64,000 nt of DNA from Alphaproteobacteria bacterium (GTDB taxonomy: Bacteria > Pseudomonadota > Alphaproteobacteria > CALKHQ01): positions 3,424,001 through 3,488,000 of the forward strand of contig CBDDFZ010000001.1 of the NCBI GenBank assembly GCA_965227515.1, written 5' to 3'. The position numbers were made by a program, and so were the translations under genes. This document shows positions 51,077 through 60,769 of the stretch, piece by piece. Under the pieces are notes generated by a model. The model did no database searches, was not told the DNA's origin, and saw nothing but the letters and a program-made list of their open reading frames with translations. Each line of letters starts with the position of its first letter. Position 1 is the first letter of the stretch.

Positions 51077-51152
51077 GGGGCCGTAGCTCAGTTGGGAGAG
51101 CGCTACGTTCGCAATGTAGAGGTCAGGGGTTCGACTCCCCTCGGCTCCACCA
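51077..51152 (+). tRNA. tRNA-Ala(CGC)
   Basis: 76-nt cloverleaf GGGGCCG...CGGCTCCACCA with anticodon CGC. Confidence 0.97.
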
Positions 51153-51332
51153 TATTTCCGGCGGTCGTCAAAGTAGCCGCCACGCCAACCCTACTTTGCC
51201 GACCGCTCAAACGGCTCGAACGTGGTTCGGGCGGCGTCACCATATTTCTGGCGGTCGTCAAAGCAGCCGCCACGCCAACCCTACTTTGCCGACCGCTCTA
51301 CCGGATCGACCCTGGATCGGGCGGCGCCACCA
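51148..51332 (+). repeat. tRNA-associated tandem direct repeat, 2 x 90 bp
   Basis: CACCATATTT.NGGCGGTCGTCAAAG.AGCCGCCACGCCAACCCTACTTTGCCGACCGCTC... at 51148 and 51238; a third CACCA at 51328. Confidence 0.9.
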
Positions 51333-51389: not shown

Positions 51390-51653
51390 CTAACGGCGCG
51401 AGCTTCTCAGCAGCGTGAGGTCCAGGGTCAGGTTCGACACCACTTTGCGAAGCTTGGTGTTTTCGCGTTTGAGTTCATTGATGTACTGGACCTGGTCGAC
51501 GCTGAGCCCGCCATACGTGCGGCGCCACCGGTAGTACGTTTGTTCCGAGATCCCGAAGTTGTCGCAGATCGAACTGACGCGTTCGCCATGGGCCAGGCGC
51601 ACATCGGCCTCCTTCAGCATGGCAATGACCTGTTCTGGCGCGTGTCGTTTCAT
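51390..51653 (-). mobile_element. IS3-family transposase OrfA (HTH) without OrfB; remnant or stand-alone HTH gene
   Basis: MKRH.PEQVI.ML.EA...G......C...GISEQTYYRWRR.YGG......ELKREN.KLRKVV.NL.LD. No DDE orfB follows. Confidence 0.8.
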
Positions 51654-51863
51654 GTCCCCCTCGCAATTATGCTGTTGCCTCACATCGTCGACGAAGGGGA
51701 AGTCCAGGTGTAGCGCCAGCTGGTCGGTGGCCACCCAGATAGCGGCGATCGGGCGCGTACGCTCCGATACGCGGTGGCCGATAACGTCGGTGACATTTCA
51801 AGCAGGCAATCGCTGTCGTGCCGCTGTCGAGCTCTGAGGTCGTTGGTGGTCGGTTGGTGATCC

Positions 51864-52268
51864 CTATTGTTGTGACGGAAGCGGCGTCACCGGTCCGCCA
51901 CTGCGTGCCTCGGCCCCTGCTGCAGAGGCGATCGGCACGTCTGTGGAGAACGTTGGCGTCGCAGCGACCCTTATGACGCGCCCATCGGACACCGTCATCA
52001 GATGCGCCTCGTTCTCGCCCATGCTCATCAGCGAAATGCGGGCACGGGCGGTGGGCTCGTAGTCCTGACAGACAGGGTCGCCGACCACGGCCCTCAACAT
52101 GCGGCAGTCCTGCTGCATGGCGATGGACAGCGCGTGATCGTTGCTCGATTTCCCGGTGGCCGCCATCAGAGCTCCATCGACGACATAGGAGGCAACGCTG
52201 ACCGCCGGCGGCAAGCCGCAGCCGCTGACAACGCACAGGATGGCCGCGCAGAGTGCCGTTCGGGTCAT
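51864..52268 (-). CDS. Hypothetical lipoprotein of the CsgG/HfaB cluster
   Basis: Lipobox VSGC, TGKS..DHALS...QDC...C motif and GAGGA RBS. Confidence 0.75.
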   Translation of the reverse strand: MTRTALCAAILCVVSGCGLPPAVSVASYVVDGALMAATGKSSNDHALSIAMQQDCRMLRAVVGDPVCQDYEPTARARISLMSMGENEAHLMTVSDGRVIRVAATPTFSTDVPIASAAGAEARSGGPVTPLPSQQ

Positions 52269-52310: not shown

Positions 52311-52733
52311 CTATTGGCCCCCGTACAGGATGTCGTTGATCTCGTCGGCGGTGGTGGTCTGGGTCTCCGCGTTCGACGACTGGTCGCCCTCGGAGTTCTG
52401 GTCGCTGCCGACGAACACGTTCGCGCCCTGGCCGGCCATCACGCACAGGATGTTGCCCGCGCTGGTGGACGACGTCGGGCCCGTACCGGCACAGACGAGG
52501 GTCTCGTCGTCGATGCTGCCGGCACCGATGCCGATCCCCCCGTTCTGGTCGTCCATCTCACGCATGTAGACGGCCATGGATGCGGTGTGATCGCGATTGT
52601 TGAACGAGAACGGTTCCTTGAACCCCTGGGCCGATGCCGACGGGGCGACGGCCGAGATCACCAGGCCAGCGACCAGAACAGACACCGGGCCGATGGCACC
52701 TCGCTGTAAAGTTGCAGACATTGGATTTCCCAT
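52311..52733 (-). CDS. Secreted HfaA-like (curlin nucleator-like) protein
   Basis: Signal peptide (ASA). C-terminal SSTSAGNILCV..G.GANVFVGSDQ.SEG resembles the HfaA 'TAIGNNL.V...G..NTVIV.S.Q.N.G' motif. Confidence 0.6.
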   Translation of the reverse strand: MGNPMSATLQRGAIGPVSVLVAGLVISAVAPSASAQGFKEPFSFNNRDHTASMAVYMREMDDQNGGIGIGAGSIDDETLVCAGTGPTSSTSAGNILCVMAGQGANVFVGSDQNSEGDQSSNAETQTTTADEINDILYGGQ

Positions 52734-52809
52734 GGTTTACTCGCCGTGCACCGATGGCTGTGACAGGTGGTCGGTGCACGGTCGACGCTGTTGACGCGGC
52801 GGCGGCTGA

Positions 52810-52833
52810 GGGGCGGCGCATTCGCGCCGCCCC
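52810..52833 (-). terminator. Intercistronic hairpin after the major-subunit candidate
   Basis: GGGGCGGCGC-ATTC-GCGCCGCCCC, 20 nt past the stop of 52854-53705. Confidence 0.55.
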
Positions 52834-52853
52834 CGCTCCAGGACAAACCCGCT

Positions 52854-53705
52854 CTATTCGAGCGCGTCGGCCAGAGAGCCGTCGAGAACCGTGATCGAAG
52901 CGGTGTTGCCCACGGCGATCGCGGCGTTGTTGACCAGCGGACGGGTCTCGGAGACGCCGCCAAGATCGCTGGCGAACACACCGAAGACCAACGCGTTGGC
53001 CGTACCGTCGAAGTTGGCCGACTGGTTGATGTTGGCCATCAGGAAGTTGTCGGTGTCGACACCGTCGCCCTGATCCGGGTTCGGGCCGCAACCGTAGTGC
53101 CCATAGCGGCACGGGTTGTACGAGCTGCCAACTTCAGTCGTCAGGCCGCTCTCGCCGGTGGCCGACGGGTCCAGGGTGATCGACACGGAGTTGCCGACGA
53201 CCTGGGCGGTGTTGTCGACCGACGCGTTGAAGACCAGGCCGACGACCGCATTCGCGTCGAACTCGGCTTCGCCGTGCCAGTCGTTGTCCGACACCTTCTG
53301 GTCGATGTCAGCCTGGACGGACACCTGGGACTCGATGCTGGCGGAGTTGCCAATCGCTGCCGCCACGTTGTCCACGGTCGGCTCGATGGAAGCGGTCTCC
53401 ACATCCGGCTCGTTGTTCCAGCCGCCCCAGCCATGGTGACCACCATGCTTGGAGTCGGTGTCCGGGTCGTTGACGACACCGATCACGACCGCATTGGCTT
53501 CCAGATCGCCCTTGAAGTCCTGGTCGATCTCAACGATCGTGGCACCGGCCGGATCGATCTTGATATCGACGTCAACGTCGACATCGATCTCGGTATCCGC
53601 GTCCAGTTCCCATTCCCACTTGCTGCGGTCGAACGCCAAGGCCGACGAGGCCATGCCGGCGGTCAATGCCAACGCGGTGGCTGACAGTAGTAGTTTGCGC
53701 TGCAT
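52854..53705 (-). CDS. Secreted repeat protein, HfaD/curlin-like putative amyloid fibre subunit
   Basis: Signal peptide (ALA) and three imperfect repeats I(D/N)Q...ANA(V/L)V...V(D/N)N.A..(I/V)GN(S/T).SI. Start codon directly follows the TAA of the upstream hfaB-like gene. Confidence 0.7.
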   Translation of the reverse strand: MQRKLLLSATALALTAGMASSALAFDRSKWEWELDADTEIDVDVDVDIKIDPAGATIVEIDQDFKGDLEANAVVIGVVNDPDTDSKHGGHHGWGGWNNEPDVETASIEPTVDNVAAAIGNSASIESQVSVQADIDQKVSDNDWHGEAEFDANAVVGLVFNASVDNTAQVVGNSVSITLDPSATGESGLTTEVGSSYNPCRYGHYGCGPNPDQGDGVDTDNFLMANINQSANFDGTANALVFGVFASDLGGVSETRPLVNNAAIAVGNTASITVLDGSLADALE

Positions 53706-54536
53706 TTAAAGATCCTCCTCTTGCAGGCTGTAGGGATATTCGAGCGACACGAGCCCGCACTCGGGCGAGCCCGGCAGCCCCAGACCCTCCGTCATCATCA
53801 GGTATGCGAACATTTCGACGACGGAGCGGACACCGATCTGCAGCGGTTCGTTGCGAACCGAGCCGGCGTCCAGTTCGACCAGTGTGTCCCCAAAGAACCG
53901 GAACACGTTGGTCTCCACTTCGAAGCCGTAGATCTGCTTCTGAAGTGACTTGGCGTACACGACCGAGAAATCGCGTGAATCGATCACGCGCCCGTCGATC
54001 GCGACGTTGATGACGACGGTTCTGGCGCCTGCGCCGATCCCGTCGATCCACAAGCCGAGGCCATCGCTGGCCACGCTGTAATTCAGTTCCGTCAGCGCCC
54101 CGAGCACCACGAAGTCGCTGCCGACCACCTTGCTGCGATAAGCGCTGAACGGCCGGTCGAGCAGGCCCTGCTCTGCCATGGCGATCTCGGCCAGCGGAAT
54201 GCGCAGGTCGTAGCGCTCGACCAGCTCGGCCTTGTTCGTCTTGAACAGCGCGCTGGTCATCATCTCGGCCACGCCCTGGGACAGCGCGTAACCGTCTGCC
54301 TCGAAGTTGATCTGGCCGCTCTTGTCGCTGACGTCGCCGACGGCGATCGTCGGCAGGTTGCTGCCCGGCAACGACGCAAGCTGCGTCAGGCACGCGCTGT
54401 AAGGCGTATCGTTGCTGGTGACCGGAAAACTGTATTGCGGCTGAACGCTTTCCGTCCCTCCAGTGGTGAGGGGCGCGCAATTGGCGACGGCGAGACAAGC
54501 AATGACTGCAATCGAGGTCGTATTTGTCTGTCGCAT
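53706..54536 (-). CDS. CsgG/HfaB family outer-membrane secretion lipoprotein (copy 1)
   Basis: Lipobox-like VANC; PVTSNDTPYS, IAVG.VSDKSGQ, LVERYD, GALTELNY, NVAIDGR, SLQKQI.G and EPLQIGVR as in HfaB. Confidence 0.88.
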   Translation of the reverse strand: MRQTNTTSIAVIACLAVANCAPLTTGGTESVQPQYSFPVTSNDTPYSACLTQLASLPGSNLPTIAVGDVSDKSGQINFEADGYALSQGVAEMMTSALFKTNKAELVERYDLRIPLAEIAMAEQGLLDRPFSAYRSKVVGSDFVVLGALTELNYSVASDGLGLWIDGIGAGARTVVINVAIDGRVIDSRDFSVVYAKSLQKQIYGFEVETNVFRFFGDTLVELDAGSVRNEPLQIGVRSVVEMFAYLMMTEGLGLPGSPECGLVSLEYPYSLQEEDL

Positions 54537-54850: not shown

Positions 54851-56101
54851 CTACTCGGCGCCGATCGACCGCTGCACGCCGGAGGCCACGAGCGCCCGCA
54901 GGGCGGGCCTGGCCTCTTCCCAATCGGGCACGCGCCTGGGTGCCGCGCCCTCGATCTTTACCGGCAGCGTTCGCGGCGCCTTGCGTTCGACGGCCAGGCT
55001 CACCAGCGAACGCTCCGCCGACGCGAATGCGTACTTGTAGGCCTCGTTGCCGCGCAGGAAGTCATAGATCTGAAACCCGTTCGCGATGGCGTACCGCAGC
55101 GAATAGGCGTGCAGCACGAAGCCTGGCGGCGGGTTGTTGGTGGTCGTGTCGCAACCGCTGACCATGAACAGCAAGCTGCGCTTCCGCGCGTCGATGATCG
55201 TGCCGAGCGCCCCCATCGGCTGGTCGCCGCGCCAGAGCACGGGCAGCAGAAGCGCGTGGCCTACCCCAATACGCGTCAGCATGACCCGCAGGTTGTTGCA
55301 GATCGTGTCCGTGCGCTCGCGCTTGCGCGGCGCCCATTTCCGCCGCCAGAAACCGAGCAGGATCTCGATATCACGGTCCAGGGTCTCGGCCGTGGCCAGG
55401 CGGATGGATATATCGCTGGTCTCATCGTCGACCTTGCGCAGGAAACGCCGGGCTTTCTGGCGCGTGTTGCGCCCGAGACCATCGAGGAACTGGTCCCAAT
55501 CGGCCGGCAGGCGCGCGAACGGACAGACGAGCTGGTCGACCGCGTCGCCGCGGTCTTCCTCGTCAGGTTCGGAGCGCGCGTGGACGGCGCCGCCGCCGCG
55601 CACCATCTCGACCGCGAATTGGCGCCGCGGGAAGCAGTTCGCCAGCAGCCTCGACCGTTCGGCCGACGCACAGATGTTCTCGAATTTCAGGGTGGTCCAC
55701 GGCATGTGCCGGAGATATTTGCCCAGCGCCAGCACGGCCTTGGTCTGGTAGCGCGGCATGCACAGAATGCCGGTATAGTCGGCAACCCGGTTGCCCAGCA
55801 TCGCCAGCTCGAAACCACGCCCGCCGCGCGCGCCGGCGATCGTGCGGATCCGCAACGGCAGGAATGCCACATAAGGCGATGTGGACTCATCGGGGCGGAT
55901 CGCCAGGATGCACCAGTCGATCTTCGTGACCTGCACCCAGTTCCAGATCCAGTCCCACGACAGGAAGAATTGTGCATCGGGATCGTCAGCGTAGACCGCG
56001 TCCCAGTGTGGTTTGATCCGGCGCAAGTCGCGCAGCGTCCGCAGCGCACTGATCACCATGACGCAGGCCCTAGCATGCTCGGCCGCGGGTCCGCGCACCA
56101 C
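54851..56101 (-). CDS. GNAT acetyltransferase, CelD/BcsL (Acetyltransf_6) type
   Basis: W..VY..DP..QFFLSW.W, GN.VADY, PGFVLH..SL.YAI..G...YDFLRGNEAYK. Alternative ATG at 56059. Confidence 0.85.
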   Translation of the reverse strand: MVRGPAAEHARACVMVISALRTLRDLRRIKPHWDAVYADDPDAQFFLSWDWIWNWVQVTKIDWCILAIRPDESTSPYVAFLPLRIRTIAGARGGRGFELAMLGNRVADYTGILCMPRYQTKAVLALGKYLRHMPWTTLKFENICASAERSRLLANCFPRRQFAVEMVRGGGAVHARSEPDEEDRGDAVDQLVCPFARLPADWDQFLDGLGRNTRQKARRFLRKVDDETSDISIRLATAETLDRDIEILLGFWRRKWAPRKRERTDTICNNLRVMLTRIGVGHALLLPVLWRGDQPMGALGTIIDARKRSLLFMVSGCDTTTNNPPPGFVLHAYSLRYAIANGFQIYDFLRGNEAYKYAFASAERSLVSLAVERKAPRTLPVKIEGAAPRRVPDWEEARPALRALVASGVQRSIGAE

Positions 56102-56117: not shown

Positions 56118-56558
56118 TCATCGCCCGGTTCCGTTCAGGATCTGCTCGATGCTGGCGGCGACCGACGTCACCGGCGGCAGGTCCGCAATGTCCCCCCGCA
56201 GGTCGGTATTGCCCATGTCGAACTGCGGCAGGTCGAAGACCTGGCGCACCGACACGGTGCACATCGCCTCGCGGGCCGCACCGTCGGCGGCCGGCTGGTC
56301 ATCGCAGTCCAACCGCATATCGGCGGACCCGATGACCAGCGCGGCACTCGTTGCGCGGAGGGGCCGGGGTTCGGGTTGCGCGGGTGCGGATTGGGCGCGC
56401 TCCCGGGCATCCTCCGACGCAACCTCGGTGTCGTCCGCCATGCCATTGTGCGAAACGGCCAGCATGACGGACACGGCGGTCAGGAGAAGCGGTCCATGCC
56501 ACCGCCTGGCAATCTGACGGTCCAGGCGGTGACGGACGCTGTGGCGGGTGGCAGGCAT
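56118..56558 (-). CDS. Hypothetical exported protein of the CsgG/HfaB cluster
   Basis: Hydrophobic segment PLLLTAVSVMLAV, two Cys, ends SIEQILNGTGR; fills the gap between hfaB-like copy 2 and the GNAT gene. Confidence 0.55.
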   Translation of the reverse strand: MPATRHSVRHRLDRQIARRWHGPLLLTAVSVMLAVSHNGMADDTEVASEDARERAQSAPAQPEPRPLRATSAALVIGSADMRLDCDDQPAADGAAREAMCTVSVRQVFDLPQFDMGNTDLRGDIADLPPVTSVAASIEQILNGTGR

Positions 56559-56583
56559 CGTGCGGTTCCCTTGCCTTGCCGGC

Positions 56584-57549
56584 TCACTTGGGACCGAACT
56601 CGCCGGCGCCGCCGCTCGCACCGCCGCTCGACCCGCCCGAGTTGCTGGCAGGAGCAGCGCCTCCCCCCGGCGCGCCGCTGCCAGATCCGCCACTTGTCGG
56701 TGCCGCGGAGCCATCGCCCCCGTAGCCCGCGGTCACGACCTCGAACGGGTACTCCAGGTCGATCAATTCGCAACCCGAAGCGCCGGGCAGGCCCAGCCCC
56801 TCGGTCAGCATGTTGTAGACGAACATCTCCACGACCGAGCGCACGCCGATCTGCAGCGGCTCATTGCGGATCGAGCCGCCCTGGAACTCGACCAGGGTGC
56901 TGCCGAAGAACCGGAACACGTCGGCTTCGACCTCGTAGCCGTAGATCTGTTTTTGCAGGGACCGCGCGTAGACCACCCGGAAGGTGCTGGATTCGACCAG
57001 GCGGGCGTCGATGGCGACATTGATGACGACCGTGCGCGCGCTGCCGCCGATGCCGGCGACCCACAGGCCCAGCCCGTCGCTGGTGATGTTGTAGTTCAGC
57101 TCCGTCAGCGCGCCGAGCACGATGAAATCGGTACCGGGAATGTTGCCCTGATAACTGCCGAAGGGCCGGTCGAGCAGGCCTCGCTCCGACAGCGCGATCT
57201 CGGCGAGCGGCACCCGCAGGTCGTAGCGTTCGACCATGTCGGTGATGCCGGTGCGATAAAGCGCGCTCGACATCATTTCCGCGACGCCCTGGGTCAGGGC
57301 ATTGCCGTTCTCATCGTAGTTGATCTGGCCCGTCTTGTCGGCGATCTCGCCGACCGCCACGACCGGCCGGTTGCCCACCTGGAGCGTGCTGAGCTGGTCC
57401 AGGCAGGTACTATAGGGAGTCCCGTTATATGTGACCGGGAACGCGTATTGCGGCGTTACACCTGTGTTCCCGTAAATGGCTTGCGGAGCACAACCGCCTG
57501 CAACGGCAAGAACCGTTGCCAGTACGGGCGCGATTACACGGTAGGACAT
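56584..57549 (-). CDS. CsgG/HfaB family outer-membrane secretion lipoprotein (copy 2, Gly/Ser-rich tail)
   Basis: Lipobox AGGC, same HfaB motifs as copy 1, tail SGGSGSGAPGGG...; GGAGG RBS. Confidence 0.88.
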   Translation of the reverse strand: MSYRVIAPVLATVLAVAGGCAPQAIYGNTGVTPQYAFPVTYNGTPYSTCLDQLSTLQVGNRPVVAVGEIADKTGQINYDENGNALTQGVAEMMSSALYRTGITDMVERYDLRVPLAEIALSERGLLDRPFGSYQGNIPGTDFIVLGALTELNYNITSDGLGLWVAGIGGSARTVVINVAIDARLVESSTFRVVYARSLQKQIYGYEVEADVFRFFGSTLVEFQGGSIRNEPLQIGVRSVVEMFVYNMLTEGLGLPGASGCELIDLEYPFEVVTAGYGGDGSAAPTSGGSGSGAPGGGAAPASNSGGSSGGASGGAGEFGPK

Positions 57550-58154
57550 GAAACCCTCCACACCCCGTGCCGTTTGAAAGCTAGTCATTGCCGGTGCTTA
57601 GGCTGCACCACTGTGTCGGCACGGTTCCGAACTGAATGGCAAACGGCCTTTCGGCCTGACTTGAGTTGAGGAAAGATTAAACGGAACAAAACCAACAGCA
57701 ATATCTATAACGGCCTAAGCATTTTGAGGGTTTTACTTATGATATGATACCATCCGTTCGGATGATCATCTTCCGGCTATTGTGCGAAATGTTGCGCCGC
57801 GCGACTGCACCGGCCACGCAATCCGCCGGCGCTGGCCGCATGGCGCGCGCAAGGGGACCCGCACGCGCCATGCCTTCGAAATTTTGACGCCTTGTCCGGG
57901 GTGAACCTTCGGGATCCCTCATCCATTCGCGATCCTTCGTGCGAGGGAGTGAGAAACCTAACACTCTCCAACGTCGCAATGACGCCCTGATTTCCTGTCA
58001 GGGCAAGCACTTAGAGCGACCCATAAGTATATTCCTGTGTTAGGCCACTAACATTACTGATGCTTTCTCTTTTCCATTCCGCCTTCATTTCTTGAACATA
58101 CCTTTGGCGCTACTATATTGAGGTAAGCAAATGGAGTAGGAATGGAGATCAAAG

Positions 58155-58793: not shown

Positions 58794-59696
58794 TCACGAC
58801 ACTAGGCGACCGCTGCGCCGTTGCAGGCTGCCCGGTATCGTTGGCATGTTCTCGACCGCCCAGATCGCGGCTTGTGTGCGATTGGACAGCCCCAGCTTGC
58901 GCAGCAGGTTCTTCAGGTGTGCCTTCACCGTCGCTTCCGAGATCGCCAGGTCCATCGCGATCACCTTGTTCGCCTCGCCACGGGCGACCAGCTTGAGGAT
59001 CTCGCTTTCGCGATCAGTCAGCTTGACGTCCTGACTGCCCCGTGCGGATGAGGGGTTGCCCTCGATAACCGACAACGGCGTCGTGCCACGCCAATCTTCT
59101 ATCGGCCTGCCCAGTGTGGCGGTATGACCGTTGTGCCCCTGACCGAGACCGCGCACCACGCCCTCGTCCCTTCGCCCGTGGGGCTCGGGTCGGCTGTCTT
59201 CACCGGAATCGGTTCCAGACTCCGCCGCGCACGCATTCCCGTTATCCTGCTTAGGCACGGCCTTGCCCTGGCTCGCCAGAGCCTCGGCAACGCCGCCGAT
59301 GTATTCGCGCAAGCGACGCGGGAATACCAATTGGCCCTGCAGAACGGCCTTTACGGACACCAGCATGGTGTCCCACGAGACGTTCTTGTCGATATAGCCG
59401 CTTGCCCCGCAGGCCGCGGACGCGCGGAGTGCCTGACTGTCGCTGGAAAAATCGGTGAGCAATACAATTTTTGCAAATGGATAGAAGACCTGAATACGAT
59501 CGATCCACTCATTCACGGAATAGGCCAGACCCGGCAGCTCGGTGAGAACAAGGTCGACGCTTTCGTCGTGTTCGACCGATATGTCCGGGTCCGCAATATT
59601 GTGCGCACGAGCGACGTAATACCCGCTTTCCGTGAGCAGTCGAACCAACCCCTCTCGAAACAGTTGGTTTGGCTCCAAGACAACAATCTGGTGCAT
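58794..59696 (-). CDS. LuxR/NarL-family response regulator with atypical receiver (CsgD/VpsT-like)
   Basis: HTH: LTDRESEILKLVARGEANKVIA..LAISEATVKAH..NLLRKL...NRTQAAIWA. Receiver has VVLEP and LVLTE where the acidic pocket and phospho-Asp normally lie. Confidence 0.88.
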   Translation of the reverse strand: MHQIVVLEPNQLFREGLVRLLTESGYYVARAHNIADPDISVEHDESVDLVLTELPGLAYSVNEWIDRIQVFYPFAKIVLLTDFSSDSQALRASAACGASGYIDKNVSWDTMLVSVKAVLQGQLVFPRRLREYIGGVAEALASQGKAVPKQDNGNACAAESGTDSGEDSRPEPHGRRDEGVVRGLGQGHNGHTATLGRPIEDWRGTTPLSVIEGNPSSARGSQDVKLTDRESEILKLVARGEANKVIAMDLAISEATVKAHLKNLLRKLGLSNRTQAAIWAVENMPTIPGSLQRRSGRLVS

Positions 59697-60769
59697 CCTA
59701 CACCCCCAAAAAGCATGGCCGGACGGGCCATGTTCGAAATGGCTTTGGGGCGGGACCGCACGACACATTCAGCGCTGCCGCACATCCGCAGGCTCGCCGC
59801 AATTCCGGAAATGGGCGTTAGAGATAGAAGCCGAGCGTCGCTTGACGTAGAATATTCAACTATTTAGTGCGCTCTTCTTCCATCGTGCGATAATGCGTCA
59901 ACCGCAGGACGACACAGCCTGCGAAATCGACCCAGCCCTTTGGAATTCAAACGAAAAATAAAGCCCCCCAGACGCCATTCCATTCCCCCATTTGAATGCG
60001 TCGTAACTCGAAACCACATTAGCCAAAGCTCACCAACCAGCGATGGCAGGAATGCCGCTCCGAGCGAGAAAACTCTAACAGGTATGATTGCAGTTTGTTA
60101 ACCGTGCTCACGAATTCGTGAAAAATTAGCCGCATAGGAATGCAAATCGATTACCACAAAAATACACACATACGTGTGGCATACTGCAGATTTGCAAGTT
60201 CCGCACAACGATAGGGGCAATTGACCAGGCGCTCAAGCACTCCCAGTCTCTTTGTCATTGACTTGCCATAAGTTACATTTTTTTAAATCTACCGCCGGCA
60301 AGCCAGCCCAGTCCCGGTGCCAGCCGCCTCCGACAACGCCTTCTCTTACCTCAACCGTCGTCTGGTTGTCACAATATCCGCTCCGATCAATCTATCCACG
60401 AACTCGCAGGTGGAGCACCGCTGTCGTGAGAGCAGCACCAATACATCTGGCCGGCCGCAGACATCGTCGTCAATGCGAGCCAGCCGCCCTCAACACCGCC
60501 TGGATGGCGGCGCGCCGGCCCTGCAAGTCCGTGCATTCTCTGCCCGTCGACTTACACCTTTGTCGAATGCAAAGGCATACCATCGGGTAATTGACCCGCA
60601 CAATTGCGTCACTGCTCAATGTTCGTGAAATAACAAACACGGCACGGCGCGTGCCGAATGCTCGCATTGTCGCGCAATGTCTTGTGTTTGTCGTTGTAGA
60701 CAGGCCCGCGGCGGTGGGCTGGTGGCGCACGCCGCCGAACCGCCGCATCGGCTCGCCAGGGAAGAGGAA

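Follow-up and report, generated by a model that had tools for sequence, protein, structure and literature searches.

Which kind of surface protein, if any, is encoded directly downstream of a gene for a CsgG-family pore lipoprotein in a 64,000-nucleotide stretch (hereafter the window) of the alphaproteobacterial contig CBDDFZ010000001.1? The gene in question, on the reverse strand at 52854–53705, encodes a protein of 283 amino acids that we call T283, and a first-pass annotation made from the nucleotide sequence had proposed that it is a major amyloid subunit, naming CsgA, FapC and HfaD as proteins with similar ladder residues. We find that T283 belongs to a rare protein family that has no name in Pfam or NCBIfam, and that it is a remote relative of HfaD, plausibly working alike, which lies outside HfaD, CsgA and FapC by their curated definitions. 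The reading that we favour, and hold to be somewhat more probable than not, is that T283 would be a short, acidic, three-rung HfaD-like beta-solenoid, exported via an HfaB-like channel and polymerising at the cell surface.

The gene itself is real. Its GC content at third codon positions (0.84) is in the range typical for genes of the window, all the strings previously quoted from its translation are present there, and the signal peptide ending ALA|FD is followed, as described, by an alternating acidic segment, with TEIDVDVDVDIKID at amino acids (aa) 38–51. The mature form has 259 aa and an isoelectric point of 4.05, while the whole 283-aa protein carries a net charge of −36. The gene and the parts of its product are laid out as follows.

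52854–53705, reverse strand: T283 gene, encoding a three-repeat secreted protein of 283 aa (from the open reading frame, its translation and homologues).
53634–53705, reverse strand: signal peptide, aa 1–24, cut after ALA and before FD as judged by eye (A22, A24 and F25 conserved in at least 90% of 113 members).
53544–53633, reverse strand: N-terminal segment, aa 25–54, FDxxxWxW followed by alternating EIDVDVDVDIKID; conserved, with low model confidence.
53328–53543, reverse strand: repeat or rung 1, aa 55–126, with predicted strands at 55–65, 68–78 and 110–126 (AlphaFold2 strands and repeat statistics).
53379–53471, reverse strand: His/Gly/Trp loop inserted in rung 1, aa 79–109, at a site where loop length varies from 7 to 141 aa in the family.
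53172–53321, reverse strand: repeat or rung 2, aa 129–178, with predicted strands at 129–139, 147–159 and 162–178 (AlphaFold2 strands and repeat statistics).
53043–53171, reverse strand: variable linker, aa 179–221, with the Cys pair of NPCRYGHYGCG; low model confidence.
52887–53042, reverse strand: repeat or rung 3, aa 222–273, with strands at 222–230, 232–244 and 258–273 (AlphaFold2), predicted to stack on rung 1 of the next subunit in a trimer model.

The three repeats exceed chance, as in pairwise local alignments they scored 52, 58 and 48, above the maxima of 45, 41 and 42 reached in 300 shuffles for each pair (z-scores of 4.9 to 7.4). Moreover, the conserved ladder of glutamines, asparagines and glycines that had been read from the single sequence is nearly invariant across 113 aligned family members. 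This holds for Q62 (113/113), Q136 (113/113) and Q228 (107/113), for N120 (111/113), N172 (106/113) and N267 (106/113), and for G66 (113/113) and G266 (108/113), and the ladder residues of the middle rung recur in both terminal ones. Conservation is highest in the segment that follows the signal peptide, in which F25 is found in 111, W30 in 113 and W32 in 111 of the 113 members. Every one of these members is acidic (median net charge −28).

The inserted loops likewise prove to be true insertion points, with lengths that span 0 to 141 aa across the family: loop 1 measures 7–141 aa (median 81; 29 in T283) and the linker between repeats 2 and 3 measures 0–48 aa (median 8; 42 in T283). The further suggestion that these loops bind metals or surfaces, through KHGGHHGWGGW (aa 86–96) and NPCRYGHYGCG (aa 196–206), fared less well. 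Two or more cysteines occur in the linker of 15/113 members and three or more His or Trp residues in loop 1 of 28/113, and the Cys-bearing insertion is missing entirely from four of six close homologues aligned. Since the loop motifs vary in this way, the His/Trp and Cys-pair chemistries of T283 are local variations rather than family features, and a conserved metal-binding role is unlikely. Some members are far longer, at 504–598 aa (P0090, P0126, P0129 and locus L033, G042:C1:941451-943190), and the L033 gene contains two matches to the family profile within one open frame, so that members need not always have exactly three repeats.

How widespread is this family? T283 found no match in Pfam (E ≤ 0.1, in a copy without PF27277) or in NCBIfam (E ≤ 10), and when 45 members were compared with the same collections no family was common to any two of them, the only hits being single, chance-level matches to DUF1302, DUF3829_2nd and araD. 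A word-indexed search of 5.8 billion proteins returned eight sequences including T283, with six full-length homologues at 42–60% identity and none that was informatively named, and an exhaustive HMMER search of 1.84 billion representatives returned 129 clusters at E ≤ 1e-3, of which 29 reached E ≤ 1e-10 and 4 reached E ≤ 1e-30, with most of the distant matches aligning best over query residues 3–85. A profile search of Protein Data Bank (PDB) sequences with the family gave no match at E ≤ 1. Within a sample of 301 genomes from the class, nine carry the family, and a sample of 401 genomes from the phylum, searched with at most five candidates scored per genome, yielded three matches, all from the window's class. 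A word search of titles and abstracts found no three-repeat HfaD-like family, which is weak evidence of its being unpublished, as an unnamed family escapes such a search.

Two database entries for the family deserve a comment in passing. In the family gene at L035 (G130:C16:4900-6069), the match spans a single in-frame TAG; this gene could be a pseudogene, or the TAG could reflect a sequencing error or a wrong boundary. The sole family match listed from a named genome collection, L003 (CAZYFM010000078.1), is titled as a Flavobacteriaceae metagenome-assembled genome, yet has a GC content of 63%. Flavobacteriaceae usually have low GC, and the contig may be mis-binned.

The earlier mention of HfaD was apt, as the repeats of T283 are tied to those of HfaD by profile comparison. 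When the T283 family profile was compared with an HfaD profile using hhalign, the two aligned over 112 columns with a probability of 96.6 and an E-value of 5.4e-10, against control values of 0.2 for the reversed HfaD alignment and 0.41–0.83 for five column shuffles. In addition, the family member from L037 (G631) matches an HfaD hidden Markov model built for this analysis directly at 6.7e-8. A 37-sequence HfaD alignment resolves into eight periods, each with an invariant glutamine and an invariant asparagine in a TAxGN context, and this signature (Q ... TAxGN) is the signature of the three T283 repeats; in both proteins a small-residue strand runs from the glutamine to ATAxGN. The nearest clusters in an ESM Atlas feature search (0.89 and 0.88) carry the HfaD family PF27277 on 52% and 70% of their members, although matches below 0.9 count as leads only. 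Tests with single sequences, namely BLASTP of T283 against the HfaD of L018 and hhalign of the family profile against the HfaD of L018 and L017, were not significant (E 0.17, 0.1 and 0.0095), so that for the family against HfaD only the profile–profile comparison reached significance.

Gene order points in the same direction, since T283, like HfaD, is a secreted, acidic, all-beta repeat protein whose gene directly follows that of a CsgG-like HfaB protein. The elements of the locus that bear on this comparison are the following.

53706–54536, reverse strand: HfaB-like, CsgG-family lipoprotein gene 1 (PF03783 at 6e-26; NF037935 at 146.8 bits; open reading frame extending to 54923).
53714–53720, reverse strand: Shine-Dalgarno sequence GAGGAGG within the 3' end of HfaB-like gene 1, 8 nt before the T283 ATG, read directly.
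52311–52733, reverse strand: gene for p140, an HfaA-like secreted protein of 140 aa (by hhalign against HfaA; likely start ATG at 52721).
56584–57549, reverse strand: HfaB-like, CsgG-family lipoprotein gene 2, a paralogue of gene 1 (PF03783 at 8.8e-31; NF037935 at 158 bits; open reading frame extending to 57588).
54851–56101, reverse strand: FemAB-type GNAT acyltransferase gene between the two HfaB-like genes (PF13480 at 8e-17; same position in L016).

The start of HfaB-like gene 1 was placed at a probable ATG at 54536 from an alignment of homologues and the lipobox. Its TAA (53706–53708) abuts the ATG of T283 (53703–53705), and the coupling of the two genes, with GAGGAGG inside the upstream one, reads just as the first-pass annotation had it. 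The two HfaB-like genes are the sole matches to the HfaB model in the 5.5-Mb genome, gene 2 lying 3 kb upstream. Across 11 loci, all of which were picked for holding the T283 family, an HfaB-like gene followed by a T283-family gene was found in every case (11/11), with the p140 family next in 10 (it was undetected in L034). In the class sample, matches to the HfaB model fell into three tiers, at 368–410 bits (8 genomes), about 220–234 bits (4 genomes) and 148–173 bits (9 genomes). The canonical order hfaA-hfaB-hfaD was seen in the top tier, in L017 and L018, and the nine genomes of the lowest tier are exactly the nine carriers of the T283 family, which in 9/9 cases has its gene directly downstream of the HfaB-like gene.

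The gene that follows T283 completes the picture. Compared with a six-sequence HfaA alignment by hhalign, p140 matched with a probability of 95.7 and an E-value of 8.7e-9 (0.021 for the reversed control and 0.099–0.89 for shuffles), aligning with the C-terminal HfaA motif AxGNxLxVxxGxxNxVxVxSxQ, and the HfaA and HfaD profiles themselves match one another at E 2.5e-7. Together with the synteny, these profile links identify the cluster as an Hfa-like triad in the order B-D-A, with diverged parts and a shortened D component. As for p140, it has no Pfam or NCBIfam family and only four close homologues by word-indexed search, and members of its family have two invariant cysteines and, following the signal peptide, a conserved P-[FW]-x-F motif. 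In Caulobacter, according to the available sections of two reports (10.1101/2022.07.20.500906; PMC6707917), HfaA and HfaD are surface-located multimers that resist heat and sodium dodecyl sulphate and that need HfaB; those sections describe Hfa anchor proteins from Caulobacterales alone, and cite no structure of HfaA or HfaD.

Is T283 then an HfaD orthologue in a holdfast anchor (hfaABD) of the Caulobacter type? The remote profile similarity, the position of the gene downstream of an HfaB-like gene and the presence of a FemAB-type GNAT (PF13480), of the same broad type as HfsK in so far as the available sections describe it, are all consistent with this. We nevertheless consider it very improbable and, as orthology, largely refuted. 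T283 did not match the NCBIfam HfaD model NF037936 (cut-off 100 bits) at E ≤ 10, nor did any of 45 family members at E ≤ 0.01, whereas the true HfaD proteins of L017 and L018 scored 338.8 and 123.2 bits; in precomputed Pfam assignments PF27277 is absent from eight close family proteins (0/8) and present on 90/90 HfaD matches listed. HfaD has about eight repeats of about 47 aa each in about 400 aa, against three in the 283 aa of T283, and the conserved FDxxxWxW N-terminus was not seen in its consensus. The pore partners differ as well. Both HfaB-like genes of the window reach 147–158 bits against a cut-off of 300 bits for the NCBIfam HfaB model NF037935, T283 pairs with another HfaB-like clade in other genomes, and none of the eight genomes with a true HfaB carries the T283 family. 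The gene order is B-D-A rather than A-B-D, the HfaA-like gene coming after T283 instead of before hfaB. The GNAT was also considered as an HfsK orthologue and rejected, as it was weakly matched in only one of five true-Hfa genomes (E 1.6e-4, 25% identity), leaving the Pfam type as its support.

If T283 is a relative of HfaD rather than HfaD itself, what fold might it adopt? AlphaFold2, run with the 113-sequence alignment, predicted a repetitive monomer and not a globular one, with 119 residues at a predicted local distance difference test (pLDDT) of at least 90, mostly in nine strands, and these strands (pLDDT > 90) group as three rungs of three. A Foldseek search of the PDB with this model gave a sole match at E ≤ 0.001, to the amyloid FapC of Pseudomonas (9u4u_A; E 2.6e-4, probability 1.00). 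The next matches, to FapC 9nqd (E 1.3), a CsgA fibril (E 2.0) and ice-binding beta-helices (E > 2), were not significant. Similarly, an AlphaFold2 model of HfaD (pLDDT 90.3) found weak solenoid matches only, the best being Pontibacter CsgA at E 0.028, so that both models are solenoid-like and have functional amyloid subunits as their best, though weak, PDB matches. FapC has three imperfect repeats separated by variable linkers, and is exported via FapF, not via a CsgG-type pore; it differs from T283 in showing 12% identity and no sequence-level match to the family.

The likeness to curli follows a similar pattern. Here too, a gene for a CsgG-family (PF03783) lipoprotein adjoins one for a secreted repeat protein with glutamine and asparagine ladders, a LuxR-type regulator gene lies near the T283 cluster as csgD lies near curli operons, and head-to-tail stacking is predicted. 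Neither T283 (Pfam E ≤ 0.1) nor any of 45 family members matches Curlin_rpt (PF07012), however, and among the seven cluster proteins scanned at this locus none gave a csgB-, csgE- or csgF-like match in Pfam or NCBIfam. The predicted rungs of T283 comprise about 40 residues in three strands, whereas those of CsgA are shorter and have two.

The fold prediction also bears on whether T283 is a substrate of the pore in the first place. An outer-membrane beta-barrel, a periplasmic accessory of the channel or an unrelated ice- or Ca-binding beta-helix would be in line with the long, antiparallel-looking strand pairs seen by DSSP and with the weak Foldseek matches to ice-binding beta-helices. We find these options hardly credible, because no membrane barrel was present among the 40 Foldseek matches listed, because the protein ends in LADALE without the terminal aromatic residue that marks outer-membrane barrel proteins, and because its acidity and its strict pairing with a pore gene better suit a substrate.

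Can such a solenoid bind copies of itself? In an oligomer check of the kind proposed in the first-pass annotation, models of a homotrimer of mature T283 scored 0.64, 0.62 and 0.62, whereas the best of three controls reached 0.00; partner pLDDT was 61 or more, and 68% or more of the contacts were common to the runs. Among calibration proteins, 20 of 30 with structures solved as pairs and 1 of 23 solved as single chains reached the mark used for this score, figures that are only roughly valid for T283 as three copies and a custom alignment were used. The modelled stacking is head-to-tail and in register, placing repeat 3 (220–246 and 256–275) on repeat 1 of the next copy (53–80 and 109–128). Since the closest contacts are N267–N120, G266–G119, N267–Q62 and Q228–Q62, both the glutamine and the asparagine ladders continue across subunits in the model. 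The prediction supports self-binding of T283, short of proving it.

Against this stands the idea that T283 is exported without polymerising. It would then be a monomeric solenoid adhesin, or else cap the HfaB-like pore or form a platform on it, presenting variable loops or nucleating the HfaA-like protein. Just three rungs, a strong negative charge and variable, often very long loops (0–141 aa) that suit a display scaffold would all fit, as would the fast divergence of T283 (39.5% identity to a same-family orthologue, against 74% for the pore protein) and the dependence of HfaA multimerisation on HfaD, as given in the available sections of 10.1101/2022.07.20.500906. We regard this as unlikely, given that the trimer model clears its controls and its subunits meet in register, and that the end rungs keep the ladder residues of the middle rung, as expected if the ends must mate.

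A different question is which of the two subunit-like proteins would make the bulk of any fibre. The DNA between their genes carries two hairpins.

52809–52834, reverse strand: GC-rich hairpin of 11 pairs with a GAAU loop and no U-tract, 20 nt after the T283 stop codon.
52741–52785, reverse strand: second strong hairpin, just upstream of the p140 start (from folding).

The 141-nt intergenic stretch downstream of T283 has a folding z-score of −3.67, and the strong hairpin noted earlier beyond the stop codon is real; it lacks a U-tract, however, and is not among the terminators called by a scan. The T283 homologues of L015, L016 and L013 are likewise followed by an equivalent hairpin, which is missing from the low-GC L014, so that counting the window its position, rather than its sequence, is conserved in 4/5 loci. 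This fits a regulatory or stabilising role between two structural genes.

The hairpin is central to the reading closest to the first-pass annotation, in which T283 is an amyloid that, as the major subunit, forms the fibres of a curli-like system by itself and is overproduced thanks to the hairpin, with p140 as only a minor subunit or nucleator. The strong Shine-Dalgarno sequence and translational coupling, the retention of the hairpin between the two genes, the predicted homotypic stacking and the rank of FapC as top structural match are all compatible with this. To our minds it is nonetheless rather doubtful, because the hairpin has neither a U-tract nor a terminator call, because the neighbour of T283 is an HfaA-like gene, and because most family members combine three repeats with very long loops (a median of 81 aa for loop 1), unlike compact fibre subunits. 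The HfaA-like p140, itself CsgA-like, could equally be the fibre former instead of T283.

We therefore return to a polymerising, HfaD-like T283 and ask how it might work. T283 would be exported by the Sec machinery, lose its signal peptide and cross the outer membrane via the channel of the translationally coupled HfaB-like lipoprotein. The FDxxxWxW segment probably guides it to that channel and may be a pore-targeting signal comparable to the N-terminal segment that targets CsgA. At the surface, the protein would fold into three stacked rungs of about 40 residues and three strands each, with a core packed with small residues, a glutamine ladder (Q62, Q136 and Q228) and an asparagine ladder (N120, N172 and N267), while the variable loops would project outward from the solenoid. 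Head-to-tail polymerisation, rung 3 mating with rung 1 of the next subunit, would then yield an amyloid-like oligomer or fibre, together with the HfaA-like p140, and this assembly might either mediate adhesion as a surface fibre or anchor a surface polymer. The amyloid character of T283 is putative, proposed from prediction and from analogy with the Hfa proteins, and its acidity suggests that it may need divalent cations or a cationic polymer as a partner.

Several observations weigh against this reading. The pairing of pore and partner genes is imperfect, as the lowest tier comprises 12 pore genes in its nine genomes, 10 of which have the partner gene beside them; HfaB-like gene 2 of the window lacks a T283-family partner, and genome G271 has a second HfaB-like gene (C35, 159 bits) with no other family match in that genome. 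The failure of T283 to match any of the curated models tried, NF037936 and the curlin repeat among them, counts here as well, as does the lack of a PDB sequence match at E ≤ 1. As for the models, the monomer is of moderate quality (mean pLDDT 74.1, predicted template-modelling score 0.66), with the N-terminal segment and both long loops unmodelled and pLDDT below 50 at aa 28–46. The match to FapC 9u4u_A has low template-modelling scores (0.22/0.35), a root-mean-square deviation of 10.5 and 12% identity, and the CsgA fibril match falls short of significance. Furthermore, end-to-end stacking may be what structure predictors return for any repeat that resembles a solenoid, and the stacking model may be biased by the curli and FapC fibrils already solved, though the T283 family has no sequence match in the PDB. 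Finally, subunits with a net charge of −36 should resist stacking on one another, except in the presence of counter-ions or of a positively charged partner.

We also put forward, tentatively and as a possibility short of a probable one, a broader proposal in which T283 is part of an unnamed, horizontally mobile ‘mini-Hfa’ module, made up of a LuxR-type regulator, an HfaB-like pore and three-rung HfaD-like and HfaA-like subunits, and scattered in Alphaproteobacteria outside the holdfast-bearing lineages. T283 would then be a minimal, self-complementary amyloid block that forms a head-to-tail, extremely acidic fibre independent of holdfast polysaccharide, with loop sites of 0–141 residues that act as a display scaffold. 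As this family shows, other Alphaproteobacteria possess a second and simpler version of the HfaB/HfaD/HfaA triad, with its own pore clade and a different gene order. At 26 kDa and with three predicted rungs, T283 would lend itself far better than HfaD to in vitro polymerisation and cryo-electron microscopy, and might show how repeats of the HfaD type stack and how pores of the CsgG type recognise substrates other than curlins. Because the loop sites tolerate widely differing lengths, T283 would, if the fibre is real, be attractive as an engineerable scaffold, and if it proves not to polymerise, the annotation of a family nameless in Pfam and NCBIfam will still be useful.

Two further genes flank this core.

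51864–52268, reverse strand: lipoprotein gene of 134 aa, the last of the cluster (from its open reading frame; homologue at the equivalent position in 4/11 loci).
58794–59768, reverse strand: LuxR/NarL-type response regulator gene upstream of the cluster (GerE at 1.1e-20 plus Response_reg).

The 134-aa lipoprotein has no Pfam family and could be an accessory factor of the system. It was considered as HfaE and rejected by eye without a profile test, as the HfaE motifs given in the available sections of 10.1101/2022.07.20.500906 were not seen. A homologue of the response regulator lies within the stretch covered in 10 of the 11 loci (the window, L003, L013, L014, L015 and L033–L037), the exception being L016, a contig of 10.7 kb. 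The helix-turn-helix region of the window's regulator matches the NCBIfam CsgD model at 74 bits (cut-off 250 bits), and by analogy with csgD this protein may be a dedicated regulator.

Other HfaB-like genes have different neighbours. In the window, HfaB-like gene 2 (56584–57588) is followed by an unrelated 198-aa open reading frame, p198 (56118–56714), and then by the GNAT gene, whereas in L016 (G002) the GNAT gene sits between two identical pairs of HfaB-like and three-repeat genes. This arrangement suggests that one of two copies of the three-repeat gene has been lost from the window or replaced there. We also considered p198 as a member of the p140 family, but hhalign gave E 0.03 at a probability of 1.7, and only the C-terminal ending IEQILNG (IxxILNG-like) is in common. 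The middle-tier HfaB-like genes (L025 and L027; G044 and G087), at about 220–234 bits, encode products of 438–535 aa and are preceded by genes for secreted Ser/Thr/Asn-rich proteins of 237–264 aa, with an RPWQF motif after the signal peptide; these loci may represent another Hfa-like variant.

Turning to the surroundings of the cluster, a tRNA-Ala(CGC) gene lies at 51077–51152, with its 3' end opening a 90-nt tandem duplication (51142–51231 and 51232–51321, 89% identical), and a remnant of an IS3-type transposase OrfA lies at 51390–51734. Across about 50.5–61 kb the GC content dips to 0.53–0.66 in most 1-kb windows (at most 0.69 near 56 kb), compared with 0.67–0.69 in the flanks. Possibly the Hfa-like cluster is part of an integrated island, in line with its patchy distribution.

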